Source: an uncultured bacterium (lineage in GTDB: Bacteria; Patescibacteriota; Microgenomatia; UBA1400; PJMF01). From it: 64,000 nt of DNA. The DNA lies in assembly GCA_903842795.1 (NCBI GenBank), contig CAIMNJ010000011.1, positions 3,166 to 67,165 of the forward strand. Direction: 5' to 3'. The position numbers were made by a program, and so were the translations under genes. Below, in pieces: positions 2,188 through 56,199 of this stretch (positions are counted from its first letter, which is position 1; every line of letters begins with the position of its first letter). Below the pieces are notes generated by a model, which saw only the letters and a program-made list of their open reading frames with translations, did no database searches and was not told the origin of the DNA.

Positions 2188-3534
2188 CCACCAATTGCTT
2201 TGGCGACAAAGAATTTTGCCTGCATCTTCTTCGTTTAGCATCATTTGTTTAATTGCTTCCTCCAAAAAAATTGTATTTTGCGAGCCTTTAACTAAAATTA
2301 GGTCATTGGCTTTTAGTAGATTGGCAATTTTTTCTCCAGCAATTTTTGAATTTTCAAAAAATATGGTTTGATTTTTATTATTTACCCTCATGATGGGTAG
2401 AGCATACTTTTTCATTTCTTGTCCAACTAGGAAAATTTGATCAAAGCTTTTTGAAGCTAATAGCGCTATTTCTTCATGCATTGCTTGAGTTTCCTCTCCA
2501 AGTTCCCTCATGTCTCCAAGTAAAGCTAATTTTCTGCCCTGGTTATTTACTTTATTCATTAATTCAATCATGTCCTTCATGGAAGAGGCGTTATACGAGC
2601 TATCTATAATAGTTGAGTTATTTTTTCCTTTGATTGCTGAAGCTCTCCCAAGAGGAATGGAGAAGTTATTCTCTAGGGAATTTTTTATTTCTTCTGTACT
2701 AAGTCCTGCTTTTATTCCAATTAAAATAGCCGGTGCCAGGCTGTAAGCGTAATGTTTTGGTAATAAAAAATTATTAATTTTGATTGTTAATTTTTGATTT
2801 TTGATTTTTAGCTTGCCATAGTGGCTTTGAATTTGAAAATTAAAAGTGGTGTTAATTATTTTGTCCAGAATCTGTGGTTGATGCTCAATTATTTGCAAAT
2901 CACAAAAGCTATCGCTTCCAAAAGAATAGCTTTCTGCTTTTGTATTTTTGCAGCTTTCCTTGACATTCAGATCATCAAAGTTCAAAAAAGCTAAACCATT
3001 TTTTGGCAAAGATAAGATCAACTTGGCTTTTTCTTCAGCAATTTTCTTTATAATTTGTTTTTTTCTTTCTTTTGGTTCTTGCTCAGAAACCAATTGATCA
3101 AAAGCAAAGCTGTGATTTACGTTGGCATTGAGAAAAACTGCCATTTTGGGTTCGATAATGCTAAGCAAAAAATCCATATTCTTAGGTGGATTGGGACTAT
3201 CTATGCCCATTTCTACTAAGTAGTAATCAAACTTTTCAAAATTAGTAAGCAATTTAATTGGAGCCATAAATAAGACTCTTAGCCAATCTAGAACAGAATA
3301 ATTCTTCATTTCTAATCCTAGAATATCCAATGGAATTCCTGACTCAGAATTAGCTTTAAAACTTGCTTTTACCTGATACTTGTTTTTTAGAACGCTGTAT
3401 ATAGCATTGCGGGTGCTGCTTTTGCCGGCACTACCGGTGATTCCAACAATGTTGCAATTCTTATTCTTTTTCAGTTGCAGTTTGGCAAAAAACCTTAAGT
3501 AATAAAGGACAAATAATGCTGCTTTTTGCTTCAT
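2170..3534 (-). CDS. murF: UDP-MurNAc-tripeptide--D-Ala-D-Ala ligase
   Basis: Mur ligase P-loop 'GITGSAGKSST'; MurF-type 'DSSYNASSMKDMIELM' (DDSYNANP motif); 454 aa. Confidence 0.85.
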   Translation of the reverse strand: MKQKAALFVLYYLRFFAKLQLKKNKNCNIVGITGSAGKSSTRNAIYSVLKNKYQVKASFKANSESGIPLDILGLEMKNYSVLDWLRVLFMAPIKLLTNFEKFDYYLVEMGIDSPNPPKNMDFLLSIIEPKMAVFLNANVNHSFAFDQLVSEQEPKERKKQIIKKIAEEKAKLILSLPKNGLAFLNFDDLNVKESCKNTKAESYSFGSDSFCDLQIIEHQPQILDKIINTTFNFQIQSHYGKLKIKNQKLTIKINNFLLPKHYAYSLAPAILIGIKAGLSTEEIKNSLENNFSIPLGRASAIKGKNNSTIIDSSYNASSMKDMIELMNKVNNQGRKLALLGDMRELGEETQAMHEEIALLASKSFDQIFLVGQEMKKYALPIMRVNNKNQTIFFENSKIAGEKIANLLKANDLILVKGSQNTIFLEEAIKQMMLNEEDAGKILCRQSNWWLSVKR

Positions 3535-6236: not shown

Positions 6237-6296
6237 AAACTCATTATAGCTTATATAACTGCGACTGTTGATGAAAAAACCTGATAAAATCAAACT

Positions 6297-7070
6297 ATGA
6301 AAGTTATGCAAACAAGTCAAATTTTTGGTTTTCCAATCCTTAGTGTTAGGAAACAGGAATTCTTTGATTCTTTGGATAGCTTTTTTTTAGAAAATAGACG
6401 AGACAAATCTCTTACCCTAAAGATTTTTACACCAAATCCCGAACAATTGGTTGTTGCTACAAATGATAAAATTTTTTCTTCAAATTTGTCCAAAGCAAAT
6501 TATCTTTTACCAGATGGGATCGGTTTGGTTTATGCCTCAAAAATTTTGAGTTTTTTTGGCAAAACTAAAGAAAAAATCAAAGAACGCATTGCTGGGGTAG
6601 AGGTGGTAGAGCATTTGCTTGACTTGATTAAAGAGCAAAAACTAAAAGCCTTAATTATCGGTGGGAGAGATTACAGTAATGCTGAAGATGTAGAATTTTC
6701 CTCCAATCTCTTCTGGACAGAGGGATATCAGGATAAATTTGAAATTTTATCTACTGAAGAAGCTGTTTTGACAGAAAAAATTAATGAGCTGAAACCAGAT
6801 TTGGTTTTTATTGCCTTTGGAGCTCCAGATCAGGAAAACTGGATTATTAATCACGAAAAATTATTAGAAGAAAACAAAGTTAGAATTGCCATGGCAGTTG
6901 GAGGCTCATTTGATTTTATTTTCAATAGAGTCAAGAGAGCTCCAGTTTTTGTTCAAAAACTTGGCTTTGAATGGCTTTGGCGCCTCATAAAACAGCCATG
7001 GAGAAGACACAGACAATTACGCCTACTCAGTTTCATTTGGCTGGTTATTAAGGAAATTTTTAAGCGTTAG
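6297..7070 (+). CDS. WecB/TagA/CpsF-family glycosyltransferase (N-acetylmannosaminyltransferase-like)
   Basis: 'FTPNPEQLV', 'LPDGIGLVYASKIL', 'IAFGAPDQENW' and a C-terminal 'WLWRL' are typical of the TagA/WecG family; 257 aa. Confidence 0.75.
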   Translation: MKVMQTSQIFGFPILSVRKQEFFDSLDSFFLENRRDKSLTLKIFTPNPEQLVVATNDKIFSSNLSKANYLLPDGIGLVYASKILSFFGKTKEKIKERIAGVEVVEHLLDLIKEQKLKALIIGGRDYSNAEDVEFSSNLFWTEGYQDKFEILSTEEAVLTEKINELKPDLVFIAFGAPDQENWIINHEKLLEENKVRIAMAVGGSFDFIFNRVKRAPVFVQKLGFEWLWRLIKQPWRRHRQLRLLSFIWLVIKEIFKR

Positions 7071-22787: not shown

Positions 22788-24260
22788 TTAGTTTAGTTTT
22801 ACTATTTTCAGAATATTTTCCGCTCCGTGATAGAAGTCATGATCAAGCTGTCTACTGTTTTTCATGGCTTGTCCAATCCAGGATCGCTGTTCATTTGCTT
22901 TTAATTTAGGTACAGGCCTGGTCCCGCCAGCTGGAATTGCGCTTTCGGAAGTATGCTCATTGGTCTGAGCGAGTTCAGTTAATTGTTTAGCAATATTGTT
23001 TGTTTGAGCTTGTATTGCTGTGCCATTTTTTTCAAAAACTGCACGTACGTTATATTCCCACTCACCCCATTCCTTGAGAGTGAGTAGAGCAGCTCCAGAA
23101 GCGACTGCGTCGTAGGCCATGTCTCCAGAAGGCTTGCTGATAAAAACATCGGCCCAAGAAAAGCCTTTTTGAATCAATAATTCATTAGCATCAACAATTT
23201 GTGGATGATAGATAATTCTAAAGCGATGCTTATTTTCTTCGTTTTTACTGGTTTTGATCTTGTTATTAATGCCAAAATTGGCAGGGTCATTTGGGCTAAT
23301 GATTTGATAAGCAAGGTCATTAGCTTGAGCAATTTCAATGGCCATATTTTTATGATCTTCATGGGTGCCGGCATAAAAAACCAATTGGGTCTCGACTAAA
23401 TCAGTTTTTTGTCCCAAGGCTTGTTGCTTTAGTATTGGCAACATTTGCTCCAAAATGCTTTTTATTTCTGGTTTATTAGTGCCAAGGCCACCGGTAGTTA
23501 AGCAAATTCTAAGTGGTCTTTCGTCTGTCCAAATTGTTTTTTCTTTGTGGCAATCGACTATTCTTGGGTCAATTGGTGGGCCAGTGACAATGACTTTGTC
23601 TTTTATTTGGTCCTTTGGTATTTTTTTGCCAATTTGTTTGGCAACTTCAAAAAATGATTCTTTGGTGGCTTCATCAAAGACCAAAAATTTCATATTTGGC
23701 AAATGTGCATTTTGCAAATAATCGCTACGCACGTGTGGATCTGTGATCATTTGCACAACTTTTTTACCCTCTGCAGCTAGAATATTGCCCGTCACAATGT
23801 GAAAGGAAAGAATGGTTTTTTTGATTCCAGAACCAAGATAAAGAGTGGGAGGAGTGACATTATCTAAAATTGGCATTTTGGAACGGCCGAATTTATCGAC
23901 GATATCTTTTAACATTTTTAAAATTGGCCAGCGAGCAATAGTTCTGCCAATTAAATCTGTTATTTGTACGCTTTTAAAAGCGGCGTTGCTGACGTAATTA
24001 GTGCTATCTACAAGCCAAGCTTTTTTAGGATCAATGCTATTTCCCCAGGCTTGTATTGCTATGCCGAGAGCCATGGAGTAGTGAGCGCGTGAAAGCACAA
24101 TGTCGGTACTATTGTCTTTTTCTTTTTGATGATGAAGACCCTTGAGGTCTTCTCGAAAGGAAGCGGAAACAGTGATAATGGGAATTTTGGTTTGTTCGAG
24201 GAGTTTTTTGTCTGCTTGGTAAATCTTTTTTAATTCTTTGGCGATTTCATTATCTTGCAT
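22788..24260 (-). CDS. GT-B glycosyltransferase, family-28-like (MGDG synthase/UgtP/MurG-like C-terminal domain)
   Basis: 'WADVFISKPSGDMAYDAVASGAALLTL' resembles the GT28 C-terminal donor-binding motif. The ORF-track start at 24401 would read through tRNA-Trp, so the start is moved to MQDNEIAK at 24260. Confidence 0.6.
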   Translation of the reverse strand: MQDNEIAKELKKIYQADKKLLEQTKIPIITVSASFREDLKGLHHQKEKDNSTDIVLSRAHYSMALGIAIQAWGNSIDPKKAWLVDSTNYVSNAAFKSVQITDLIGRTIARWPILKMLKDIVDKFGRSKMPILDNVTPPTLYLGSGIKKTILSFHIVTGNILAAEGKKVVQMITDPHVRSDYLQNAHLPNMKFLVFDEATKESFFEVAKQIGKKIPKDQIKDKVIVTGPPIDPRIVDCHKEKTIWTDERPLRICLTTGGLGTNKPEIKSILEQMLPILKQQALGQKTDLVETQLVFYAGTHEDHKNMAIEIAQANDLAYQIISPNDPANFGINNKIKTSKNEENKHRFRIIYHPQIVDANELLIQKGFSWADVFISKPSGDMAYDAVASGAALLTLKEWGEWEYNVRAVFEKNGTAIQAQTNNIAKQLTELAQTNEHTSESAIPAGGTRPVPKLKANEQRSWIGQAMKNSRQLDHDFYHGAENILKIVKLN

Positions 24261-24365
24261 GCTTTTTAGTGTAGCAGTTTTTTGGTGGTGGAGGAAATGA
24301 TGATGCGTTAGCTCTGGCTTTATTGAGCAATGATTATTATAATTGGGCTCTAAGAAATTTAACAA

Positions 24366-24436
24366 AGGGCGGTATTTCAATGGCAGAATAGGGGTCTCCA
24401 AAACCTTTGATGAGGGTTCGATTCCTTCCCGCCCTG
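24366..24436 (+). tRNA. tRNA-Trp (anticodon CCA)
   Basis: Acceptor AGGGCGG/CCGCCCT, anticodon stem GGGGT/ACCTT (two G:U pairs) with loop CTCCAAA, T-arm GAGGG-TTCGATT-CCTTC. Confidence 0.75.
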
Positions 24437-28389: not shown

Positions 28390-29385
28390 TTAGGATTTAA
28401 GGATATTTTTGCACTCGTTCCAAGTGCATAGGTTTTTGCCTTCTATTTGCACTTGGTCCAAAATCAAAACCTCATTTTCTTTGTGGCAGGCCAAAATTTT
28501 CATTCTTTTTTCGCCATTTGTAGTTGGGATGATGGTCCACAAATTTGGCCAAGGAGAAAAGGCAAGACTAGCATTTTTGATAAGAGTAATTTGCTTTGAT
28601 TTGTTTTCGCAAATGTTTTGATTATTTAGTAAATCAGTTAGAAGTCCGGGATTGTTTTCTTCAGTCTCTTCAATTTTGGTCTTTTGTTGCTCATTCATTA
28701 GTCTGAGTAGATTGGTCCAAGAAACGAAACTATCTTCTTTGCTTAGACGACGCGCGACCATAGTTGGGCTATTGTCTGGTTGAATAATTGGTTGGATTTT
28801 TTTGTTGGCAAAGTCATTGATTAAGTCAGCCAGTTTTTCTTTTATCAAAGCAAAGGCTGCCTGGTAATATTCGTTTTGAGTCCAATTCTGTTTTAAAGTA
28901 AATGGCAATTGTGTCAAAATTGGTCCCTGATCCAGAGAAGAATTCATTATCATTAGGGTAATTGCTGACTCTAGACTATTTTGATCTAAATCCTGAAAAA
29001 GAATGCAAAACTGACCAGGAGAACTGCCTCGCCATTTGGGTAGAAGAGAAGGATGAATATTAAGTGGAGCAATTTTTGGTAATTTTAATAGCCAATTTGG
29101 AATAAAATAACCAAAATCAACCACTAATAAGAAGTCAATTTCTCCATTTTGCTCAAATTCTTTGAGTAAACTACGATTAATTTTTTGTTCCACCAAAAAT
29201 GTTTTAATCTTGTTTTCTTGTGACCAGACATGTAAAGGATTTTGAATCAACTCTTTTTTTCTACCGACTGTTTTTGGTGTGGGCGAGAGAGTCCAAGTAA
29301 TTTCAAAACGGTCATCTTTTGCCAAAGCTTTGGCCATTGAGACGGTATTGTTGGTTGAGCCGGCAATAGCGATTCTGTATTTCAT
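28390..29385 (-). CDS. fmt: Methionyl-tRNA formyltransferase
   Basis: 'NIHPSLLPKWRGSSP' matches the Fmt 'HASLLPRWRGAAPI' signature; immediately downstream of def. Confidence 0.9.
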   Translation of the reverse strand: MKYRIAIAGSTNNTVSMAKALAKDDRFEITWTLSPTPKTVGRKKELIQNPLHVWSQENKIKTFLVEQKINRSLLKEFEQNGEIDFLLVVDFGYFIPNWLLKLPKIAPLNIHPSLLPKWRGSSPGQFCILFQDLDQNSLESAITLMIMNSSLDQGPILTQLPFTLKQNWTQNEYYQAAFALIKEKLADLINDFANKKIQPIIQPDNSPTMVARRLSKEDSFVSWTNLLRLMNEQQKTKIEETEENNPGLLTDLLNNQNICENKSKQITLIKNASLAFSPWPNLWTIIPTTNGEKRMKILACHKENEVLILDQVQIEGKNLCTWNECKNILKS

Positions 29386-29389
29386 TGGA

Positions 29390-29983
29390 TTAAAGTAGAC
29401 TCAAAATTTCTTTTTTGTTTTTTATTTCCACCCATTGTCCATCCTCATCAATATAAACTGGCAATTTATTTTTCAAAATCAAATCAGTAAAGAGAATTCC
29501 ATTGAGGTGGTCATATTCGTGTTGAATAACTCTAGCATCAAAATCTTTGAAAAGTGCTTTTTTAAGACTTGGTTGAGTTTGCTTTTTTAAGTCTAAAGTA
29601 TTGAGACTTAGATATTCAATTTCCACCCATTCATAACGTGGAACTGGTCCGTAGAGTAAAGGAATTGACAGACATCCTTCGAATCTTTCTGAGCCATCAG
29701 CTGCTCCAAGAATTTTATTGGTGCTATTTTTGGTGATTTTTGGATTAATAAAAAATTCCACGACTGGTTTTTTACTATCTTGGTTTTTTTCACCTAAAAT
29801 AGCAGCAAAAACTCGCACAGATTTATTGACTTGAGGTGCAGCTAAACCAACACCTTTTGGATGTTCTTTTTTGATCAGAGTTTGTGCTAAATCTTCAAGA
29901 AATTTAAAGAATTTTTTATCAAAAACAGTTACCTCTTTGGCAATTTGACGCAGTGTTGGATGTGGAGCAGTAATAATTTTCAT
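29390..29983 (-). CDS. def: Peptide deformylase
   Basis: 'GVGLAAPQV' (motif II), 'EGCLSIP' (motif I) and 'QHEYDHLNG' (HExxH motif III). Confidence 0.9.
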   Translation of the reverse strand: MKIITAPHPTLRQIAKEVTVFDKKFFKFLEDLAQTLIKKEHPKGVGLAAPQVNKSVRVFAAILGEKNQDSKKPVVEFFINPKITKNSTNKILGAADGSERFEGCLSIPLLYGPVPRYEWVEIEYLSLNTLDLKKQTQPSLKKALFKDFDARVIQHEYDHLNGILFTDLILKNKLPVYIDEDGQWVEIKNKKEILSLL

Positions 29984-43248: not shown

Positions 43249-43812
43249 ATGAACAATTGCAGCGCACGCATCATTTTAAAAGCATCAGACATTGAGCCAG
43301 TAGTCAAAAAACTCCATCAAGAGAATAAAAAGATTGTTTTGACACAGGGTTCTTTTGATTTGGTTCATATTGGTCATGCTCGTTATTGTGATGCTGCTCG
43401 TGATTTTGGTGATGTTCTAATTGTTGGTGTAGATAGTGATGAAAAAGTGCGTCAACGCAAAGGCCCAAATCGTCCTATTGTTCCTGAAGATGAGCGTATG
43501 GAGATGCTAACTCACCTTCGTAGTGTTGATTATGTCATTCTCAAAGAAGCCGGTGAGGAAAAATTTAATTTGATTAAGTTGATTAAACCAGATGTATTAA
43601 TTGCTACAGCTGCCACTTACGATGCTAGAACAATCAAAAAGTTAGAAAAAATTTGCGGCAAAGTAGTCGTGTTGGATCCTATGGCTACAACCTCTACAAC
43701 CGCAAAAATTCGTTTGATGCAAATGAGTACGGCTCGTAAGATTGAAGATCGTATGAAAACCAAAATTATCAAGAGCATTGAGGAAGTTTTGGAAGAGTTG
43801 CGTACTTCTTAA
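43249..43812 (+). CDS. Cytidylyltransferase-like nucleotidyltransferase (HldE/RfaE domain-II-like)
   Basis: 'TQGSFDLVHIGHARY...LIVGVDSDEKVRQRKGPNRPIVPEDERMEMLTHLRSVDYVI' closely parallels the heptose-1-P adenylyltransferase 'NGCFDILHAGH...LIVAVNSD.S..RLKG..RP.NP..QRM.VL.AL..VDWVV'. Confidence 0.7.
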   Translation: MNNCSARIILKASDIEPVVKKLHQENKKIVLTQGSFDLVHIGHARYCDAARDFGDVLIVGVDSDEKVRQRKGPNRPIVPEDERMEMLTHLRSVDYVILKEAGEEKFNLIKLIKPDVLIATAATYDARTIKKLEKICGKVVVLDPMATTSTTAKIRLMQMSTARKIEDRMKTKIIKSIEEVLEELRTS

Positions 43813-46112: not shown

Positions 46113-46196
46113 GATAAAAACAATATATGGCAGTTTGCCTTATGACGCAATAGGGCGGTAGTCAATGTGGTCAACATGGTATAAGCTATATCAGAT

Positions 46197-47006
46197 ATGC
46201 AAGCTACACCACTAAAATCCCGTATTGTTCGACCAAATGATGACTTATTGATGGTTATTGATGAAACGATTGCTAATGAGTTGGGTGGTAGTTTGCCGGA
46301 AAACTCTGTTTTAGCAATTAGTACTAAAATTATTAGTTATTGCCAGGGCAGATTAGTCCCAAAAACTATAAATCAAGAAAATGGTAATAAAGAAGAATTG
46401 AGAGAGGAAAAACATAATTTGGTCAAAAAAGAAACCGAATTATATATTGACCCTCACTCTTCTAAATATGACATGATGCTTACCATTAGAAATTCAACGC
46501 TCGCTGTTAATGCGGGGATTGATGAATCAAATGCCTCTTTAGATGGTAAAGAGTGCTTTGTGCTTTGGCCAGAAAAAATTCAAGAAACAATCAATCAAGT
46601 TTGGCAATACTTGCGCCATAAACACGGCTTAAAAAATTTTGGAGTAATTACGACTGACAGCCGTTCTTTTCCTTTACGTTGGGGTGTAGTAGGTACGACT
46701 ATCGCTAGTTGTGGATTTAAGGCACTTAATAATCGAATTGGTGAAACAGATATTTTTGGCCGCACTATTCATATGGTGCAGGTTAATGTGGCTGAGGCTT
46801 TGGGAGTAGCAGCAACATTTGAAATGGGTGAGGTTGCTGAAGTTACGCCACTTGCCTTATTAACCGATCTAAAAAAAGTACAGTTCGTAGACCATGAACC
46901 AACAGAACAAGAATTGGAAGATAATAAGATTGAAATAGAAGATGATGCTTATGCGCCTTTATTAACCAACGCTAATTGGCAAAAAGGAGAAAAATATCAT
47001 GAGTAA
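46197..47006 (+). CDS. CofE-like (F420-0:gamma-glutamyl ligase family) protein
   Basis: 'IVRPNDDLL...VLAISTKIISYCQGRLV' and 'NAGIDESNASLDG...VITTDSRSFPLRWG' parallel CofE motifs ('I.PGDDL...IVSKAEGR', 'GIDASN...VIISDT'). Confidence 0.55.
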   Translation: MQATPLKSRIVRPNDDLLMVIDETIANELGGSLPENSVLAISTKIISYCQGRLVPKTINQENGNKEELREEKHNLVKKETELYIDPHSSKYDMMLTIRNSTLAVNAGIDESNASLDGKECFVLWPEKIQETINQVWQYLRHKHGLKNFGVITTDSRSFPLRWGVVGTTIASCGFKALNNRIGETDIFGRTIHMVQVNVAEALGVAATFEMGEVAEVTPLALLTDLKKVQFVDHEPTEQELEDNKIEIEDDAYAPLLTNANWQKGEKYHE

Positions 47007-47526
47007 ACCAGAAGTAATTTTAATTGCAGCCATGAGCATTGATGGCTTTATTGCTCCAAAAGATCAGGAAAAATTGCCTTCAACTGTTTGGACGAGTAAA
47101 GAGGATTGGCGTTTTTTTACCAAAAAAAGTAAAGAAATTGGCACCATGATCATGGGTTCCAAAACTTTTGAAACAATCAAAAGAGCTTTGCCGGATAGAC
47201 GTACAATTGTTATGACCAGCAAACCAGAAAAATATAATAAGTATATTGATTCAAATTTGGAATTCACAACTTCTAATCCAGAAGATATTCTGAATAACTT
47301 AGCTCAGCAGGGTTTGGAAAAGGTAGCACTTTGTGGTGGGGCTCATATTTATAGTTTGTTTTTACAAAAAGGTTTAATTGATCGTATGTTTTTGACAGTT
47401 GAGCCATATGTTTTCGGTGAGGGAGTTAAGCTTTTTTCTATATCAGCAGAAGAAAAATTCATTTTGATTGGACAAGAAAGATTAAATGAGCAGGGGACAC
47501 TGCTCTTGGAATTTCAAAGGAAATAA
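46999..47526 (+). CDS. Dihydrofolate reductase-like (RibD C-terminal/DHFR family) protein
   Basis: 'VILIAAMSIDGFIA' and 'VALCGGAHIYSLFLQKGLIDRMFLTVEPYVFGEG', typical of the DHFR/RibD_C fold; 8-nt overlap with the upstream CofE-like gene. Confidence 0.65.
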   Translation: MSKPEVILIAAMSIDGFIAPKDQEKLPSTVWTSKEDWRFFTKKSKEIGTMIMGSKTFETIKRALPDRRTIVMTSKPEKYNKYIDSNLEFTTSNPEDILNNLAQQGLEKVALCGGAHIYSLFLQKGLIDRMFLTVEPYVFGEGVKLFSISAEEKFILIGQERLNEQGTLLLEFQRK

Positions 47527-48128
47527 CTTTCTCCATGTCCAGGATAAACTTGACCGTAGTAGCCTTGCTGGTTTAATTCCTTGAGTTTCTCTAAACTCTT
47601 ACTCATTTTTTTACCATCAGAGTAGGCAAAATCAGTGCGGCCAATATTGCCATTGGCAAAAATAGTGTCGCCACTAAACAAAATTTTTTCTTTTTTGTTT
47701 AGTAAGCAAATACTGCCAGGAGTGTGCCCTGGAGTTTGAATAATTTCGATCTCTTCACCTAAGATGTCTAGATTCTTTGTTTTGGCTAGATCAAAATCAG
47801 CCGGAGGAATTGGGTCGCTTTTTGTGCCTAGCCAATGAGCGGCGCTAGCTTGGGCTTTTTCTAATAAAAATTGATCAGCAAAATTCATCATTATTGGTGT
47901 TCCCCAAGCACTTTTGAGACTCAGTAATCCAAGGCAGTGGTCAAAATGGCCATGAGTGAGAATGATGTTCTGTAATTTTAATCCACGATGGAGTAGTTCA
48001 TCGTTGAGAAAGTCGCCGTCGTCAGCTGGATCAATAATAATAGCGCTATTTTCAAACCCAGCTGCATTGCTGGTAAGAAGATAACAGTTGGTTTGTAAAT
48101 CACCCAAAACAAAAGTTTCTATTTGCAT
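47514..48128 (-). CDS. Metallo-beta-lactamase-fold hydrolase (glyoxalase II-like)
   Basis: 'ILTHGHFDHC' (HxHxDH) and 'TPGHTPGS'; 204 aa. Confidence 0.8.
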   Translation of the reverse strand: MQIETFVLGDLQTNCYLLTSNAAGFENSAIIIDPADDGDFLNDELLHRGLKLQNIILTHGHFDHCLGLLSLKSAWGTPIMMNFADQFLLEKAQASAAHWLGTKSDPIPPADFDLAKTKNLDILGEEIEIIQTPGHTPGSICLLNKKEKILFSGDTIFANGNIGRTDFAYSDGKKMSKSLEKLKELNQQGYYGQVYPGHGESYFL

Positions 48129-48150: not shown

Positions 48151-48582
48151 ATGCAAGTGAAAATTAAGCTTTTTGATCAGACTTTACCGCTTCCAGAATA
48201 CAAAAGTAGTGGGGCCGCAGCGCTAGATCTTTATAGCCGCATAGAGATGGAAATTAAACCTGGAGAAGTGGCTTACGTGCCTCTTAATATCGCTTTGCAG
48301 GTGCCAGAAGATTACTTCGTTTTATTGTCTGCTCGCAGTTCATTACATAAAAAAGGTTTGATGATGGCCAATGGAATTGGTGTTGGTGATTATGACTATC
48401 GTGGGGATGGAGATGAATATAAGGCTGCTCTTTATAATTTTGGTAAAGAAGTAGCCAAAATTGAAAAAAGCGAACGTCTGGTGCAAATGATTGTCTTAAA
48501 AAGAGAAAAGGTAGCTTTAGAGCAACTGGAAGTTTTTGAAACACAAGATCGCGGTGGCTTTGGGAGTACTGGTAAAAAATAA
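48151..48582 (+). CDS. dut: dUTP diphosphatase
   Basis: 'LPEYKSSGAAALDLY' (motif I-II), 'GVGDYDYRG' and a C-terminal 'RGGFGSTG'. Confidence 0.9.
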   Translation: MQVKIKLFDQTLPLPEYKSSGAAALDLYSRIEMEIKPGEVAYVPLNIALQVPEDYFVLLSARSSLHKKGLMMANGIGVGDYDYRGDGDEYKAALYNFGKEVAKIEKSERLVQMIVLKREKVALEQLEVFETQDRGGFGSTGKK

Positions 48583-48586
48583 AACT

Positions 48587-49486
48587 ATGCGCGACCAAAT
48601 GGCTATACTTTTTGATCGAGCTGGTTATACAAGAGATAGTCATCCTGCCATCATTGCTGCCAACGATGTCTCATCATTGGAGTCTTTACTGATTTATACA
48701 CTTGGCGAGTTAATCGAGTTGAGTGCTGAGCATGAATGTTTATTGATTGCCAGCGATGCGGCTGGTGAAAAATTACAGCCGTCTAAACAATGGTGGTTGG
48801 AGTTTGCTGACTTCATTGTGATGCTCAAGATTATTAACGACAGGACCGGCTCAAAATTTTCTGTAGAAGAAACAAGTTTCTCTGTAAATGGTCAATTTAA
48901 GGGAAGTTTTGATTCTCTAGCTGAGCAAACAGTTAATCTTGCTGAAGGAGATGTTGGAAGGAATTTTGATTTTCTTTTTACAGAATTAATGTCTTTGGTT
49001 AGGCATTTGAATGTGGATTTACAAGGTGAACTTTATGCTAGGTTAATTAATGCTAAATTGTTTTTAAATCGTGAAATGCGTTTTTTTAAAATTGAAAAAG
49101 GCATGAATGAACTAGATGTAATCAATAAAAACAATCATGTTTTTAAAGCACTTCGTCTATTAAGAAGTTTTTTGTTGGAAGCAACTGGAGAGGAAATGAC
49201 TTTGCAGCCGTGGATTACTGATTTTTTTCAGGATGAAATTTCTGATTGGCGAAATAGTGATTTTGCTCTTGAAAGCCTAAGGAAAAAAATTGCTATTTTT
49301 AAAATAAAAATTAAGGATGAGCTGGCATGGAGTTTGACTGGTCGCAATACTGGAGATGAGTTTTTGGAAATGAAAATGATGATTGCTGGAGCAAAATTGA
49401 TTGCAGTAAATACAAGTGATGAGCAATCGACTTTACAAAGCAGGTCCGCTAATGCTACTCTGGGGACAACTGTTTTTTGGACTTAA
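48587..49486 (+). CDS. Hypothetical protein (~299 aa)
   Basis: Start is moved to MRDQMAI (48587) to remove the overlap with dut; no motifs recognised. Confidence 0.45.
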   Translation: MRDQMAILFDRAGYTRDSHPAIIAANDVSSLESLLIYTLGELIELSAEHECLLIASDAAGEKLQPSKQWWLEFADFIVMLKIINDRTGSKFSVEETSFSVNGQFKGSFDSLAEQTVNLAEGDVGRNFDFLFTELMSLVRHLNVDLQGELYARLINAKLFLNREMRFFKIEKGMNELDVINKNNHVFKALRLLRSFLLEATGEEMTLQPWITDFFQDEISDWRNSDFALESLRKKIAIFKIKIKDELAWSLTGRNTGDEFLEMKMMIAGAKLIAVNTSDEQSTLQSRSANATLGTTVFWT

Positions 49487-49520
49487 TTTTTAGAATTTGC
49501 AAAAAAATAGCAAAGGAAAA

Positions 49521-50228
49521 ATGAAAAAAAAGGGCTTATTGATTACGTTAGAAGGTGGAGAAGGTGTTGGTAAAACAACTCAAGTGGTTAGACTCAAAGA
49601 AAGGCTAATTCAAGAAGGCAAAGATGTGGTTGTTTTACGTGAGCCAGGTGGCACAGCCATAAGTGAGCAAATTCGTGAAGTTGTTTTGTCCAATAAGAAT
49701 GTTGGTATGGCTTACACGACTGAGGTGTTGCTTTTTCAAGCTGCCAGAGCACAAATTTATCGCGAAATTGTTTTGCCATCTCTAGAGTTAGGCAAAGTGG
49801 TAGTTATGGATCGTTCTCGTGATAGCAGTGTGGTTTATCAGGGCATGGTGCGTGGTTTTGGAGTAGAAATCATTGAGCAGTTAAACGATATTTCTACCAA
49901 AAAAATTTATCCAGATATTACTTTTTTGCTTGACGCTCCTGTTGAAATTGGCTTAGGCAGACGTATGGCTGTAGAAGGTGCTAATCGTATTGATTATGAA
50001 GCCAAAGATTTCCATGAAAAAGTTCGTCAAGCCTATTTGCAGGTCGCCAAAGCAGATTTGAAGAAATTAGGTACACATTCTCGTTGGCAAATTATTGATG
50101 CTAGTGCAGACGCAGAGGTGGTGGAAAGACAAATGTGGGATTTGACCAAAAGCTTTTTAGATAAGAACAAAACCAAAGATTGGGAGAATCAATTGGAGGA
50201 TGCTTCCGTTGACTATGTTGAGGAGTAA
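49521..50228 (+). CDS. tmk: Thymidylate kinase
   Basis: P-loop 'ITLEGGEGVGKTTQ'; 'DRSRDSSVVYQG' (DRY-like); LID 'GRRMAVEGANRIDYE'. Confidence 0.9.
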   Translation: MKKKGLLITLEGGEGVGKTTQVVRLKERLIQEGKDVVVLREPGGTAISEQIREVVLSNKNVGMAYTTEVLLFQAARAQIYREIVLPSLELGKVVVMDRSRDSSVVYQGMVRGFGVEIIEQLNDISTKKIYPDITFLLDAPVEIGLGRRMAVEGANRIDYEAKDFHEKVRQAYLQVAKADLKKLGTHSRWQIIDASADAEVVERQMWDLTKSFLDKNKTKDWENQLEDASVDYVEE

Positions 50229-50976: not shown

Positions 50977-51037
50977 CTTGCTACCAAAAAATATATTAGC
51001 TAGGCAAGAACTGCCCAAAACAGAAGGATTTCCGGTC

Positions 51038-52672
51038 ATGCAACAAGATTCCACTTACACAAAAGTGTCTTCTTACGAGGGAAGAAAAGGCACAGTCAAG
51101 AAAGTAGTACTGCTTTATTCTGGTGGTTTGGATACTTCAGTGATGCTGAAGTGGATTCAAGAAACCTATGAAGCACAAGTGATTGCTTTAACTATTGATA
51201 TTGGACAACAAGCTGATGATTTGGACGAAATTAAAAAGAAAGCTCTCAAAATGGGGGCAATTAAGGCAATTGTGGTAGATGCCAAAAATGAATTTGCTTA
51301 TCACTACTTAGCTAAAGGCATCAAAGCCAACGCTAGTTATCAGGGAAAATATCACATGAGCACACCAATGGGTCGTCCACTTTTGGCTAAAATTGCTGTT
51401 GATGTTGCTAGAGAATATGGTGCAGACACTATTGCTCATGGTTGCACTGGAAAAGGCAATGATCAAGTCAGAATTGAAGGCTCAATTTTGACTTTAGCAC
51501 CAGAAATGAAAATTATTGCTCCAGTACGCGAGTGGAGTATGGGCCGTGATGAGGAAATTGTTTACGCCAAAAAACATGGTATTCCAGTTAAGCAAACTGT
51601 AGCTTCGCCATATTCTTATGATGACAATATGTGGGGTGTAACTGGCGAGAGTGGAGAGATTGAAAATCCAGCTCTTATTCCACCACTAGATAAAATTTTG
51701 CAAGTTTGCAACATCGTCGAAAAAACTCCAGCTAAACCTCAGTATGTAAAATTACGTTTTATTAAAGGTTTGCCAGTAGAAGTGGACGGTAAGCCCATGC
51801 GCTTAGCAGAACTAATTATGCATCTTAATCATGTTGGAGCTAAGCATGGAGTTGGTGTAACTCATCACATTGAGGATCGTTTAGTGGGTTTAAAAGTTCG
51901 CGGATTATATGAAGCTCCAGCTGCGGAAATTATTATCAGTGCGCACTTTAATCTGGAAAAATATGTTTCTACTCGTCAGGAGAATGAATTCAAATCGATC
52001 ATTGATACTAAATGGGCATACATGTGTTACGGTGCTCTTTGGTATGAGCCATTAATGGATGATCTCAATGCTTATTTGGACAAAGTCAATCAAAAAGTGA
52101 CTGGCTTGGTGACGGTTAAATTATTCAAAGGTCAGGCTGAAGTGGTGGCTGTTGAGACGGCTAACAGTATTTTCGATGAGAAGCTGGCTACTTTTATGAA
52201 GAACGACACCTTTAATCAAAATGCTTCGGCTGGTTTTATTGAGATTTACACTTTGCAAATGCGTTTAGCTCAAGACACGGAACACTTTGCCTTATTGACT
52301 ATAGGTGAAGAAAAAAATAAGAAAAAGTTTTTGCCAATTGCTCATAAGCTCAAAGATTTGGGTTTCCAATTTTATGCCACGGAAAACACTCATCTTTTCT
52401 TAAAGAAAAATGACATTAATTCAATTATGGTGCACAAAATGTACAATAAAACTTTCCCAAGTTTGGAAGATGTTTTGCGCCAAGATGTTTTTGATTTAAT
52501 CATCAATGTTCCTCAGGATGAGCCAAGCAAAGAGGCCAAAGTTGATGAAAAGGTAATTAAGACCTGGGCCATCAAGAACGGCATTACTTTGATTAAAGAT
52601 TTTGAAACTGCTGATGGTTTTGTTAAGAAATTAGAAAAGAGATTGATTATCAGAAAGCGTAAAGAGAAATAA
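51038..52672 (+). CDS. argG: Argininosuccinate synthase fused to a C-terminal MGS-like domain
   Basis: N-terminal ArgG motifs: 'KVVLLYSGGLDTSVMLKWIQE', 'AHGCTGKGNDQVRIE' and 'IAPVREW'. The C-terminal ~135 aa are 'ALLTIGEEKNKKKFLPIAHKLKDLGFQFYATENTHLFLKKNDINSIMVHKM...DLIINVPQD'. These resemble the MGS-like domain of CPSase large subunit and PurH. Start is taken at MQQDST (51038). Confidence 0.85.
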   Translation: MQQDSTYTKVSSYEGRKGTVKKVVLLYSGGLDTSVMLKWIQETYEAQVIALTIDIGQQADDLDEIKKKALKMGAIKAIVVDAKNEFAYHYLAKGIKANASYQGKYHMSTPMGRPLLAKIAVDVAREYGADTIAHGCTGKGNDQVRIEGSILTLAPEMKIIAPVREWSMGRDEEIVYAKKHGIPVKQTVASPYSYDDNMWGVTGESGEIENPALIPPLDKILQVCNIVEKTPAKPQYVKLRFIKGLPVEVDGKPMRLAELIMHLNHVGAKHGVGVTHHIEDRLVGLKVRGLYEAPAAEIIISAHFNLEKYVSTRQENEFKSIIDTKWAYMCYGALWYEPLMDDLNAYLDKVNQKVTGLVTVKLFKGQAEVVAVETANSIFDEKLATFMKNDTFNQNASAGFIEIYTLQMRLAQDTEHFALLTIGEEKNKKKFLPIAHKLKDLGFQFYATENTHLFLKKNDINSIMVHKMYNKTFPSLEDVLRQDVFDLIINVPQDEPSKEAKVDEKVIKTWAIKNGITLIKDFETADGFVKKLEKRLIIRKRKEK

Positions 52673-52673
52673 A

Positions 52674-53645
52674 ATGAATAAAGACTGGGATTTGAAGTCA
52701 TATTTATTAAAAAAAATTAAAAAACAAGGTGGTTGGGTGAGCGCACACAACCACCTTGACAAGGCCTATCTTGTAAAACCTGGAGATTTATCTTTGGCTT
52801 ATTTATCTTTGCAAAAAAAATGGGATTTAATTGATGAGCTCAAAAAAACTCAAACTGTCCAGCAAATCTATGATCGCATGGCTTATGGGCTTGAACAGCA
52901 ACTCGCTCAAGGTGTGACTGCTCTTGGCACTTTTATTGATGTTGATCCATTGATAAAAGATAAGGCAATGAAAGCTGCTGATAAGGTAAGAGAACGATAC
53001 AAATCTCAAATTGATTTGGTTTTTATTAACCAGACTGTCAAAGGGGTTATGGATCAAGAAGCGCGTAAATGGTTTGATGAGGCTGCGCAATTTGTTGACA
53101 TTATTGGTGGTTTACCTGGCAAAGATAAAGGCAGAGAAGCAGAACATTTGGATATTTTATTAAGTACTGCCAAAAGGCGTCAGCAAATGATTCATGTTCA
53201 TGTTGATCAGTTTAATGATCCAAATGAAGAGGAAACAGCTCTTTTGGTGCGCAAAACTATCGAGCACAATATGCAAGGTAAGGTAGTGGGAGTACATGGC
53301 ATTTCTATTGCAGCGCATTCACTTGAGTACCGCCAAAAACTTTATAAAGATATGGTGGAAGCCAAAGTTATGATGGTGGCTTGTCCAACAGCTTGGATTG
53401 ATCATAGACGTCGTGAAGATTTGGTTCCATCTCACAATGCTGTGACTCCGGTGGATGAGATGGTGCCAGCAGGAATAACGGTGGCCATCGGTCCAGATAA
53501 TATTGCCGATTATTACAAGCCTTTTACTGATGGAGATATGTGGACAGAATTACGCTTTTTGTTGGAAGCTTGTCATTATTACGATTTGGAAGAATTAGTA
53601 AAAATAGCTACGATTAATGGTAGAAAGGTTTTAGGTTTAATTTAA
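52674..53645 (+). CDS. Amidohydrolase-superfamily protein, dihydroorotase-like (candidate PyrC)
   Basis: 'VSAHNHLD' (HxH metal site), 'IHVHVDQFND' and 'AIGPDNIADYY' parallel E. coli PyrC 'WHLHLRDG', 'VHGEV...D.F' and 'GTDSAPH'. Its position directly upstream of pyrD-pyrE-pyrF supports this. Confidence 0.5.
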   Translation: MNKDWDLKSYLLKKIKKQGGWVSAHNHLDKAYLVKPGDLSLAYLSLQKKWDLIDELKKTQTVQQIYDRMAYGLEQQLAQGVTALGTFIDVDPLIKDKAMKAADKVRERYKSQIDLVFINQTVKGVMDQEARKWFDEAAQFVDIIGGLPGKDKGREAEHLDILLSTAKRRQQMIHVHVDQFNDPNEEETALLVRKTIEHNMQGKVVGVHGISIAAHSLEYRQKLYKDMVEAKVMMVACPTAWIDHRRREDLVPSHNAVTPVDEMVPAGITVAIGPDNIADYYKPFTDGDMWTELRFLLEACHYYDLEELVKIATINGRKVLGLI

Positions 53646-53658
53646 CAAGGCCAAATAT

Positions 53659-54732
53659 ATGTTGCAAACTCCTTTTTACGATCCGAGCAAAAGTTACGAA
53701 GAAAATTTTGATCAAGGGCCATTTGGTGATTTTGCAGATGACAAATTGATCATGCGCGATGCAGAACCAACAAAAACTTTTTTAGGTCAATCAATTTATC
53801 TGCCTTTTGGGATTCCAGCTGGTCCATTATTGAATAGTAAATTTACAACCGCAGCTTTTAAAAAAGGTTTTGATTTATGTGTTTATAAGACTGTTCGTAC
53901 GAGAGCTTATCCTTGTCATCCGTGGCCAAATGTTTTGGGGGTCAAGGTTGCTGGAGATTTAACCTTGCAAAAGGCCGAATTGCCTTTGCGAGCTGAGACA
54001 AATTACAGCGAACCACTTTCCATCACCAATTCTTTTGGCGTGCCATCAATGAATCCTGATTTTTGGCAAATTGATATGGCCAAGGCAGTTGAGAATACAG
54101 GAATTGGACAAGTAATGATTGGCAGTTTTCAGGGGACCAAAAAACCTGGAGGGACCGCCCAGGATCTAATTGATGATTATGTTTTGGCCGCCAAACTGGT
54201 CAAAGAAACTGGTGCCAAAATTCTGGAGGCCAATCTAAGTTGTCCAAATGAAGGAACTGCAGATTTACTTTGTTTTGATACAGATAGAGTGTATTTAATT
54301 GCAGAAAAAATCAAAAATGAAATTGGTAATACGCCACTAATTCTTAAGCTGGCTTATTTTAAAGATCAGGCTCACTTGCAAGCTTATGTTCAAAAAATTG
54401 GTTCTATTGTCGATGGCTTAAGTGTAATTAATACCATCGCTGCTCCTATTATCAATCAAGCTGGAGAGCAAGCTTTACCTGGAGAAGGTAGACTGCGTAG
54501 CGGTGTTTGTGGAGCTGCCATCAAATGGGCTGGTTTAGAAATGGTTGATCGTTTAGTGAAATTGCGTCAAGAAAATCAACAAAAATTTGCAATTATCGGT
54601 GTGGGTGGCGTCACTGTGGCAGATGATTATTTGGCTTATGTTAAATCTGGCGCCGATGCGGTAATGAGTGCAACTGGCGCCATGTGGAATCCAAACTTGG
54701 CCAAAGAAATTTTAGCGAAAGTAAATAAATAA
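53659..54732 (+). CDS. pyrD: Dihydroorotate dehydrogenase family protein
   Basis: 'YLPFGIPAGPL', 'LEANLSCPNE' and 'FAIIGVGGV' are DHODH hallmarks. Confidence 0.8.
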   Translation: MLQTPFYDPSKSYEENFDQGPFGDFADDKLIMRDAEPTKTFLGQSIYLPFGIPAGPLLNSKFTTAAFKKGFDLCVYKTVRTRAYPCHPWPNVLGVKVAGDLTLQKAELPLRAETNYSEPLSITNSFGVPSMNPDFWQIDMAKAVENTGIGQVMIGSFQGTKKPGGTAQDLIDDYVLAAKLVKETGAKILEANLSCPNEGTADLLCFDTDRVYLIAEKIKNEIGNTPLILKLAYFKDQAHLQAYVQKIGSIVDGLSVINTIAAPIINQAGEQALPGEGRLRSGVCGAAIKWAGLEMVDRLVKLRQENQQKFAIIGVGGVTVADDYLAYVKSGADAVMSATGAMWNPNLAKEILAKVNK

Positions 54733-54743
54733 AAGGAGAAAAC

Positions 54744-55409
54744 ATGTCAGTTTCAAAAACTAACTTAGAAACAAGGATTGCTCAAGCCTTAATTAGAATT
54801 GGGGCAGTGGGTTTCAAGCCAGAAAATCCCATTACTTTTAAGTCTGGAATTATTTCTCCAGTATATGTTGATAATCGTCGCTTCCCATTTTATTCTGCTG
54901 AATGGAAATTAGTGGTGGAAGGCTTTAGAGAATTAATTATAAAAGATGAGATTGATTTTGATGTTTTGGCAGGAATTGAAACTGCTGGCATTCCTCACAG
55001 CGCTGCTCTTGGGTATGCCATGGACAAGCCATCCGTTTTTGTGCGCAAAAAAGTCAAAGATCATGGTACCAAAAGTCGTATTGAAGGCGGACAAGTCAAA
55101 GATAAAAAAGTGTTGTTGATTGAGGATCTGGTGACGACTGGTGGGAGTAGTTTGGCTGGAGTTGAAGCCTTGCGTGCTGATGGGGCAATCGTTAATGATT
55201 GCTTAATTATTGTGGGTTATGGTTTTGAAGAAGCAACTAGTGCTTTTGCTGCTGCTAAAGTTAAGCTTCACGCTTTGACAAATTTTTCGATAATTCTAGA
55301 AGAAGCCCTCAAACAAAAATTATTTACTGCTGAGCAAAAGTTAATTTTAGAAAACTGGTTTCAAGATCCTTGGGGCTGGGGAAAGCGCTATGGCCATGAC
55401 GTTTCTTGA
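54744..55409 (+). CDS. pyrE: Orotate phosphoribosyltransferase
   Basis: PRPP-binding 'VLLIEDLVTTGGS'; 221 aa. Confidence 0.85.
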   Translation: MSVSKTNLETRIAQALIRIGAVGFKPENPITFKSGIISPVYVDNRRFPFYSAEWKLVVEGFRELIIKDEIDFDVLAGIETAGIPHSAALGYAMDKPSVFVRKKVKDHGTKSRIEGGQVKDKKVLLIEDLVTTGGSSLAGVEALRADGAIVNDCLIIVGYGFEEATSAFAAAKVKLHALTNFSIILEEALKQKLFTAEQKLILENWFQDPWGWGKRYGHDVS

Positions 55410-56199
55410 AAAATATAACGAACGCGTCGATAAAGTTAATTCGCTATTGTGTGTTGGATTGGATGCTGATTTTTCACAAATTCCAGCTCGTTTTCAAAAA
55501 TTAGAGCATCCTCAATTCACCTTTAATAAGTGGGTTATCGAGCAAACTCATCAACATGTGAGTGCCTATAAACCGAACTCGGCTTTCTATGAAGCTAGGG
55601 GAGAAAATGGTTGGCAAGATTTATCATTAACAGTGCAGTATTTAAGAGAAAATCACCCAGAAATTGCAATTATTCTCGATGCTAAGCGTGCCGACATCGG
55701 CAACACTAATCAGGGGTATGTTGGTGCTTTTTTTGATCAGCTTGGAGTAGATGCTGTGACGCTACATCCATATTTAGGTCAGCAAGCCCTGCAGCCTTTT
55801 TTGGACAGAGTAGATAAAGGTTTGATTATCTTATGTAAAACTTCCAATCCTAACTCTGGCGAATTTCAAGATCTTGAAACCACTGCTGGCAAAAAACTTT
55901 GGCAAATAATAGCAACGCAGGTTGCAGAGAAATGGAACATTAATAATAATTGTTTATTGGTGGTTGGAGCCACCTATCCAGAAGAGATTAAAGAAGTTAG
56001 GAAGCTTGTTGGTGAAATGACCCTGTTGGTGCCGGGAATTGGTGCTCAGGGTGGAGAAGTCAAAGACACTGTTCAGGCTGGTCTCAATTCTGACCAAAAA
56101 GGCTTGATTATTAATTCGGCGCGAGGAATTATTTTTGCAGAAAATCCGTCCTTAGAAGCGCAAAAACTACGAGACGAAATTAATCTATACAGGAAATGA
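55390..56199 (+). CDS. pyrF: Orotidine-5'-phosphate decarboxylase (type 2)
   Basis: 'ILDAKRADIGNT' (cf. DxKRGDIGNT); overlaps the pyrE 3' end by 20 nt. Confidence 0.85.
   Translation: MAMTFLEKYNERVDKVNSLLCVGLDADFSQIPARFQKLEHPQFTFNKWVIEQTHQHVSAYKPNSAFYEARGENGWQDLSLTVQYLRENHPEIAIILDAKRADIGNTNQGYVGAFFDQLGVDAVTLHPYLGQQALQPFLDRVDKGLIILCKTSNPNSGEFQDLETTAGKKLWQIIATQVAEKWNINNNCLLVVGATYPEEIKEVRKLVGEMTLLVPGIGAQGGEVKDTVQAGLNSDQKGLIINSARGIIFAENPSLEAQKLRDEINLYRK

Follow-up and report, generated by a model that had tools for sequence, protein, structure and literature searches.

A 64-kb stretch of contig CAIMNJ010000011.1 from an uncultured Patescibacteriota bacterium, a member of the candidate phyla radiation (CPR), carries in its thymidylate gene cluster (43.8-50.2 kb) a gamma-glutamyl ligase gene whose product most likely belongs to the FolC2 lineage, the branch of the CofE/F420 gamma-glutamyl ligase fold (COG1478) that would have been recruited to folate metabolism. 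This stretch at its full length is referred to as the window, and its GC content is low (~35-38%). We consider it probable that the ligase functions as a FolC2-type folate gamma-glutamyl ligase, whether by itself or alongside a FolC. A preliminary description of this DNA had proposed that a CofE-family enzyme was repurposed here for folate glutamylation, a proposal that gained support from the best-scoring profile, the grouping of the protein, its lost chromophore contacts and a context of DHFR, FolK and FolC, with folate as the inferred substrate.

Profile searches assigned the ligase to Pfam PF01996 (F420_ligase; residues 6-222, E = 8.6e-29, 101 bits). The best NCBIfam profile was TIGR04132, "putative folate metabolism gamma-glutamate ligase," with 202.6 bits and a lead of more than 110 bits over the next-best profile, and the three CofE/FbiB models TIGR01916, NF009809 and NF009810 gave 90.6, 84.4 and 69.3 bits, all under their cut-offs of 180.65, 274 and 304, respectively. 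Grouping with a different family had been foreseen as a possible outcome of such a search, and the family that scored best favoured the folate reading. When calibrated on reference proteins, the same profiles gave 430.6 bits (TIGR04132) and 120 bits (TIGR01916) for Chlamydia trachomatis CT611 (P0121), and 73 bits and 369 bits, respectively, for the CofE of A. fulgidus (Af-CofE; P0241). The CT611 reference is a Chlamydia protein of 243 amino acids (aa) retrieved by protein homology search, and its ends (MKITPIKT...WSQEKK) are the CT611 cloning-primer ends printed in PMC1971073; a 19-mer from the published primer searched against genome contigs found two unrelated contigs only. The ligase has a 37% identity to CT611 over the full length and a 25% identity to Af-CofE. 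In a neighbour-joining tree of 56 sequences, CofE and FolC2-like proteins were separated in 100 of 100 bootstrap replicates with the ligase on the FolC2-like side, so that in the phylogeny against characterised CofE the ligase groups with Chlamydia FolC2/CT611 and apart from CofE. The window's own sub-clade (≥67% identity) was likewise recovered in 100 of 100 replicates, and monophyly of the wider CPR group in only 62 of 100. The CPR family comprises 1076 representatives at E ≤ 1e-3 and 109 at E ≤ 1e-30, and several CPR homologues have already been named automatically as "putative folate metabolism gamma-glutamate ligase" or "dihydrofolate synthase / folylpolyglutamate synthase."

The AlphaFold (AF2) model of the ligase, built on 99 homologues, had a pLDDT of 94.3. 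A Foldseek search with this model returned significant PDB matches to Af-CofE entries only (7uld top, 2phn; E = 6.6e-18, TM 0.73-0.78), with no FolC2-type structure among the PDB matches, and the modelled fold is thus predicted to be the CofE fold. The two motifs picked out earlier are both there: STKIISYCQGR occupies residues 42-52, and GIDESN residues 107-112. Residues were compared in an alignment of three 120-sequence sets (CPR, Chlamydia-type and CofE), and positions are given in window numbering unless Af-CofE is stated. The catalytic, metal and glutamate core (A106-G107-I108-D109, S111-N112, D154, R161, G163, M210-G211-E212 and D250) was 89-100% conserved in all three sets. The positions that hold the F420 chromophore behaved differently from this core. 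Structures of Af-CofE with F420-1 and F420-2 (2024) show the chromophore backed by F92, with the segment G153-C155 and R234 of the partner subunit at its front (PMC10861534). At Af-CofE G153-R154-C155, which was 97-100% conserved in the CofE set, the CPR set has S-F-P (P in 96%) and the Chlamydia-type set T-T-P (P in 90%). R234 was invariant in the CofE set and replaced by Ile in 97% of the CPR and 95% of the Chlamydia-type sequences, and F92 (84% of the CofE set) was replaced by D and G, respectively. K45 of the SKAEGR motif (100% in the CofE set) is Y in the CPR set and L in the Chlamydia-type set, while the nearby T41 (99% in the CofE set) is Lys in 100% of both. The ligase itself has D92, S157-F158-P159 and I245 at the chromophore-contact positions and has therefore not kept the F420 contacts. 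Twelve further positions were common to the CPR and Chlamydia-type sets and unlike CofE; the FolC2-like residues that were at least 80% conserved in both sets and differed from the CofE consensus are K44, E110, S155, P159, F174, N197, F230, I245, Y252, P254 and W261. Such a distribution would be expected had the Chlamydia-type and CPR proteins descended from one ancestor in which the head-group pocket was remodelled a single time while the ligation chemistry was kept.

The end of the ligase gene and the beginning of the DHFR gene overlap by the 8 nt ATGAGTAA (46999-47006), an overlap that was described previously and can be read directly in the sequence. In the junction AAAGGAGAAAAATATCATGAGTAAACC the ATG of DHFR is at 46999 and the TAA of the ligase at 47004-47006, and a GGAG is located nine bases 5' of the ATG. 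The overlap implies that ligase and DHFR would be translationally coupled. The corresponding junction is a 1-nt gap in L006, a called 32-nt overlap in L010 and a full in-frame fusion in L005 (P0051). From its profile matches the partner open reading frame (ORF) is predicted to be a genuine DHFR, with a DHFR_1 match of E = 2.7e-18 (66.6 bits; cut-off 25) and a RibD_C match of E = 6.8e-18 in Pfam, and with T. maritima DHFR (1cz3/1d1g) as the best solved relative (E = 2.3e-30, residues 6-172, 167 residues). It reached no NCBIfam equivalog cut-off, the best matches being Dfr families at 36-46 bits. CPR folA genes are known to complement an E. coli delta-folA strain (PMC11974145). On two public contigs of the same organism the DHFR gene appears split or lengthened (L003 2214-2759; L004 1669-2213); these copies were rejected as pseudogenes and are an assembly artefact, caused by a scaffold gap of 10 N where the sequence is rich in T/A homopolymers.

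Gene order was compared across six homologue contigs found by gene look-up and 80 metagenome loci found by tblastn with the cluster proteins. The synteny of the cluster was near-identical on CPR contigs, which together with the names of the homologues points to a Patescibacteria/CPR organism of the Pacebacteria type as the source of the window. The order thyA/ligase/DHFR, with DHFR 0-38 nt after the ligase, recurred at 11 distinct related loci (L005, L006, L010, L011, L013, L014, L015, L018, L020, L040 and L069) over which ligase identity to the window fell from 72% to 47%, and given this recurrence the arrangement is not due to chance. Ligase and thyA are 40-71 nt apart in seven of these (L005, L006, L010, L014, L015, L018 and L020), and DHFR was found 1.6-5 kb from the ligase in L008, L009/L017, L038, L056 and L071. 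The HIT-like gene beside thyA was kept at 12 loci and the hydrolase of the MBL (metallo-beta-lactamase) fold 3' of DHFR at 10, and the 310-aa hypothetical protein was detected by tblastn in L006, L012 and L014. Fusions of the ligase to other folate enzymes were also found: P0051 joins ligase and DHFR in one ORF of 453 aa beside thyA in L005, P0381 joins DHFR and ligase, and P0480 joins the ligase to FolK/HPPK (TIGR01498 126 bits; cut-off 54). The earlier proposal that the ligase works with its coupled DHFR to serve ThyA agrees with the coupling, the synteny and the fusions, and the joint action of the two enzymes is retained as a model. No ligase homologue was found in viral contigs, and a phage origin of the ligase was rejected for want of a relative there. 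In L008 a Vut_1 gene (5343-5993; PF02592, a putative vitamin uptake transporter of the YhhQ family) is located directly 5' of the FolC2-like gene and near DHFR, and in P0421 a Vut_1 fragment is joined to the ligase; this neighbour is possibly a folate or pterin importer.

Several observations weigh against a folate role for the ligase, or limit how far it can be extended. The score of 202.6 bits is below the curated TIGR04132 cut-off of 350, which excludes strict membership, and five other CPR homologues also remained below it (223-301 bits, with 95-119 bits for TIGR01916), so by NCBI's rule the CPR homologues are not certified members of the family; the cut-off appears to be tuned to the Chlamydia-type clade. 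Many homologues carry the public name "coenzyme F420-0:L-glutamate ligase" (NCBI, JGI). The outgroup of the tree consisted of Archaeoglobi CofE, and methanogen CofE and actinobacterial FbiB were represented through the NCBIfam profiles. The sole experimental anchor, CT611, rests on genetic complementation and not on enzymology (PMC1971073). No F420-biosynthesis, folC, folP or folK gene was found among all window ORFs of at least 110 aa, and this absence of folC and F420 genes is established for the 64-kb window, not for the whole genome. Two further points come from the related loci. Three diverged CPR lineages carry a canonical folC (TIGR01499 318 bits; cut-off 163) 5' of the FolC2-like gene with one small gene in between, and since both ligase genes sit in one apparent operon, this argues that FolC2-like and FolC proteins are not redundant in these lineages and are perhaps not simple substitutes for each other. 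Most CPR homologues at 41-51% identity had no thyA or DHFR within 6 kb in the tblastn sample of 80 loci and had unrelated neighbours such as uvrA/uvrB/lexA or a PduO-type adenosyltransferase, which means that the folate linkage holds for the window's clade and some others, and not for the whole family.

The folC-adjacent loci bear on the alternative that the ligase only extends chains, or has some other specialised role beside a canonical FolC whose gene is at another place in the genome, with FolC adding, for example, the first glutamates and the CofE-fold enzyme extending or remodelling the tail. The folC - orfX - FolC2-like operon of the three lineages (L046 4135-6750, L051 4135-6747, L065 4141-6753; also L047, L048 and L052) would suit such a division of labour. 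Its middle gene, orfX, is a conserved ORF of 172-174 aa that the FolC2-like gene overlaps by 4 nt, and orfX of L046 and L065 had no Pfam match. RimK-type ATP-grasp ligases that are adjacent or fused to the FolC2-like ligase in another sub-clade likewise suggest tail tailoring by several enzymes, as in CofE/CofF. Against this, no folC was found in the window or within 6 kb in any thyA-linked locus examined, and the Chlamydia enzyme works without FolC. We regard this alternative as unlikely, and it refines rather than contradicts folate glutamylation by the ligase. In the RimK-type sub-clade the ATP-grasp gene (weak similarity to MptN/RimK/CofF) lies ~33 nt 3' of the FolC2-like gene, and P0363 (510 aa) is a fusion of a RimK-type ligase with a FolC2-like ligase. 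The pair resembles CofE and CofF, which act in F420 biosynthesis, and by analogy a folate tail might be capped here with alpha-linked glutamate. A broader and rather doubtful extension of this idea is that CPR FolC2-like proteins are not plain FolC substitutes and might instead form the core of a minimal module for folate capture and tailoring in episymbiotic bacteria. In the window's clade a ligase-DHFR complex would act on the ThyA product and trap host-derived folate, and in sister clades the ligase and a RimK-like ligase would together make glutamate tails of mixed gamma/alpha linkage, in the way that F420 is tailed by CofE and CofF. Such a module, if real, would provide candidate genes for alpha-linked folylpolyglutamates.

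The loci without folate neighbours bear on a second alternative, in which the enzyme is a gamma-glutamyl ligase for a non-folate acceptor (another pterin, a metabolite resembling para-aminobenzoic acid (pABA)-glutamate, or a nucleotide-linked product of the cytidylyltransferase-like or HIT-like neighbours) and its position in the cluster reflects co-regulation only. This would be consistent with the score under the TIGR04132 cut-off, the lack of folate neighbours around most distant homologues, the co-occurrence with canonical folC, which argues that the two enzymes are non-redundant, and the RfaE-type CTP_transf_like protein as commonest neighbour, at 20 loci, and as fusion partner in P0387. 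The DHFR and FolK fusions and the folC adjacency nevertheless point to folate, the coupling to DHFR is conserved, and the residues at the specificity positions are shared with CT611, which replaces FolC in E. coli. We therefore consider a non-folate acceptor improbable. That the ligase is a genuine CofE acting on coenzyme F420-0 in an organism that makes or scavenges F420, as its Pfam F420_ligase membership, its CofE fold and the names given by NCBI and JGI to several close homologues might suggest, is very improbable, since all three CofE/FbiB scores are well below their cut-offs, F92, G153-C155 and R234 (84-100% in the CofE set) are all replaced, the 100/100 split places the protein with FolC2, and the window contains thymidylate and folate genes around the ligase and no F420 gene.

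For a FolC2-type ligase in this setting the following scheme can be proposed. It builds on fold, placement, core, contact loss, coupling, synteny and fusions as observed; the substrate, the nucleotide, the number of glutamates and the choice between salvage and de novo supply are inferred. By comparison with CofE, a nucleoside triphosphate and a divalent metal would activate the terminal carboxylate of the acceptor as an acyl phosphate, to which L-glutamate would then be ligated. The nucleotide of CofE is GTP. The glutamate tail that serves as acceptor would be that of folate, dihydrofolate or tetrahydrofolate (folylpolyglutamate synthase activity, FPGS), and dihydropteroate (dihydrofolate synthase activity, DHFS) is a possible alternative. 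The dCMP deaminase and Dut would supply dUMP, ThyA would oxidise 5,10-methylene-tetrahydrofolate to dihydrofolate during dTMP synthesis, DHFR would re-reduce the dihydrofolate to tetrahydrofolate, and Tmk would carry the dTMP onward. The ligase would keep the small folate pool polyglutamylated, so that folate would be held inside the cell in a form well suited as substrate to ThyA, DHFR and the window's formyltransferase. Because no pterin or pABA genes were seen and cofactor biosynthesis is generally missing from CPR bacteria, salvage of folate from outside followed by FPGS-type trapping would be the likelier setting.

The genes of the cluster were identified by Pfam and NCBIfam profile searches of the window ORFs, and their coordinates are listed below with those of other features named in the text.

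Features of the window and of related loci (positions are those of the window unless a locus is named)
Feature	Position	Strand	Basis
dCMP deaminase, 307 aa	43818-44741	+	Pfam dCMP_cyt_deam_1, residues 143-259 only
HIT-like protein, 156 aa	44742-45212	-	Weak Pfam HIT match, E 1.5e-4
ThyA thymidylate synthase, 290 aa	45240-46112	-	Pfam Thymidylat_synt 224 bits; TIGR03284 189 bits (cut-off 108)
thyA/ligase divergent intergenic region, 84 bp	46113-46196		Coordinates of flanking ORFs
FolC2-like (CofE-fold, COG1478) gamma-glutamyl ligase, 269 aa	46197-47006	+	Pfam PF01996, NCBIfam TIGR04132
DHFR, 175 aa, Thermotoga maritima type	46999-47526	+	Pfam DHFR_1 and RibD_C
MBL-fold hydrolase, 204 aa, glyoxalase-II/YcbL-like	47514-48128	-	Pfam Lactamase_B 87 bits; PDB relatives 7ev5, 2xf4, 2zwr
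Dut (dUTPase), 143 aa	48151-48582	+	TIGR00576 106 bits (cut-off 102.6) and Pfam dUTPase
Hypothetical protein, 310 aa as called on public contigs	48554-49486	+	Gene call; no family assignment
Tmk thymidylate kinase	49497-50228 (as called 49521-50228, 235 aa)	+	TIGR00041 157.6 bits (cut-off 83)
fmt-like methionyl-tRNA formyltransferase	28390-29385	-	Pfam Formyl_trans_N; TIGR00460 122.7 bits, below cut-off 201
Four genes after argininosuccinate synthase	52674-53645, 53659-54732, 54744-55409, 55390-56199		
RimK-type ligase loci	L031 6777-7529; L033 1966-2721; L056 3984-4718; L071 6771-7502; L032 3293-3502		

Nine genes had been described as related to dTMP synthesis. Six of these have a demonstrable role, including thyA, the dCMP deaminase gene, dut and tmk, each of which was identified by profile as a neighbour of the ligase-DHFR pair, and the remaining three (the HIT-like, MBL hydrolase and 310-aa hypothetical genes) are tied to the cluster by conserved synteny only. 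In the window's clade these three are conserved as parts of the thymidylate cluster, and they have no evident dTMP or folate role; the 310-aa protein had no match in Pfam, NCBIfam or PDB searches and the HIT-like protein none in a PDB sequence search. The MBL hydrolase gene converges on the DHFR gene and overlaps it by 13 nt. A shared promoter is presumed to lie in the divergent gap between thyA and the ligase; a consensus promoter and terminator scan of 43-51 kb found sites no more numerous than in shuffled sequence and showed no promoter. The first ~140 residues of the dCMP deaminase are an N-terminal extension without family match, and homologues of similar length (median 307 aa) were found at 16 related loci. 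Just before it, at 43249-43812 (+), the window encodes a CTP_transf_like protein of 187 aa, an RfaE-domain-II-like cytidylyl/adenylyltransferase, the type of gene found most often beside FolC2-like genes at the related loci.

Elsewhere in the window, the fmt-like gene is a second folate-dependent enzyme gene, outside the thymidylate cluster, and is accompanied by def at 29390-29983. Two Mur-ligase ORFs (2170-3534 and 3531-6320) were considered as canonical FolC and rejected, being MurF-like and MurD, respectively, with 28 bits for folC compared to a cut-off of 163. The second of these, on the minus strand, encodes a 929-aa protein that combines an N-terminal MurL-like region (UDP-MurNAc-L-Ala-L-Glu epimerase; 187 bits, below cut-off) with a complete MurD (345 bits) and is followed by the MurF-like gene. 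A complete argininosuccinate synthase (50978-52672, +; NF001770 500 bits) has at its C terminus an MGS-like domain resembling the allosteric domain of carbamoyl-phosphate synthase, and is followed by an amidohydrolase of the PRK06886 type (487 bits) that is not a classical dihydroorotase, a weakly PyrD-like protein, PyrE and PyrF. Because no carAB or pyrB is in view with this gene set, it may represent an unusual entry into pyrimidine synthesis. A 537-aa protein (22788-24401, -) has a sub-threshold match to DUF6938, a family that the window ThyA also matches weakly.

Recruitment of the CofE fold to folate glutamylation is not new. It was published in 2007 as FolC2, when Chlamydia trachomatis CT611 was predicted to have this role and then validated through complementation of SF4, a folC mutant of E. 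coli (de Crecy-Lagard, 2007; PMC1971073), and it has since been built into NCBIfam, reviewed in 2014 and 2016 (PMC4161248, PMC5041015) and noted as captured in KEGG (PMC12506659). What is new here is the CPR host group and, to some degree, the context, with the thymidylate cluster, the reversed and overlapping gene order and the occasional fusion. In the literature searched, COG1478 appeared in a folate context only in Chlamydia and Lactobacillus papers, and no paper linked it to CPR. CPR bacteria keep folate-cycling enzymes without most of the biosynthesis (PMC11974145, 2025), and FolC2-like proteins in CPR fit this retention; that paper does not mention the glutamylation step, and its supplementary files are without folC, K11754 or F420. 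FolC2, known from Chlamydia, would thereby be extended to a large and diverse CPR family of which one clade is locked to thyA and DHFR. What a FolC2-type enzyme does when FolC is also present is a question to which the fusions with DHFR, FolK and RimK and the variants beside folC offer leads. For annotation, F420-ligase names on close homologues would wrongly imply F420 metabolism in Patescibacteria.

The closest known system is Chlamydia FolC2. The window ligase and CT611 have in common the CofE fold, a similar length, TIGR04132 as best profile and the FolC2-specific residues; in both cases the gene is adjacent to folA in an operon, and both come from bacteria that depend on a host and have reduced genomes. 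The two differ in context, as Chlamydia folC2 is part of a de novo folate operon (folB-folKP-folA-folC2-ct610) whereas the window ligase is in a thymidylate cluster, and pterin or pABA genes are not seen there. The gene order is also reversed in the window (ligase, then DHFR), with the genes overlapping by 8 nt or, in relatives, fused, and the CPR proteins group in a sub-clade of their own and have a 20-residue insertion (~residues 55-75) that is missing from CT611. With CofE (2g9i, 2phn, 7uld; N-terminal domain of FbiB) the ligase shares the catalytic, metal and glutamate-pocket core (GIDxSN, xTDx, R-G, MGE) and presumably the acyl-phosphate ligation mechanism (PMC10861534), but it has only a 25% identity to it, the chromophore residues are replaced and there is no F420 context around the gene. 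Canonical FolC (DHFS/FPGS of the Mur-ligase type, TIGR01499) carries out the reaction that is proposed for the ligase, the addition of gamma-linked glutamates onto dihydropteroate or folates, with an unrelated fold (Mur_ligase_M and Mur_ligase_C) and in an ATP-dependent manner. Finally, enzymes of the thymidylate-folate cycle are likewise coupled in the bifunctional DHFR-TS of protozoa and plants, which includes a fusion of DHFR, and in the frd-td cluster of phage T4. In DHFR-TS the fused partner is thymidylate synthase, whereas here the partner of DHFR is a glutamyl ligase, and thyA is a separate and divergent gene.

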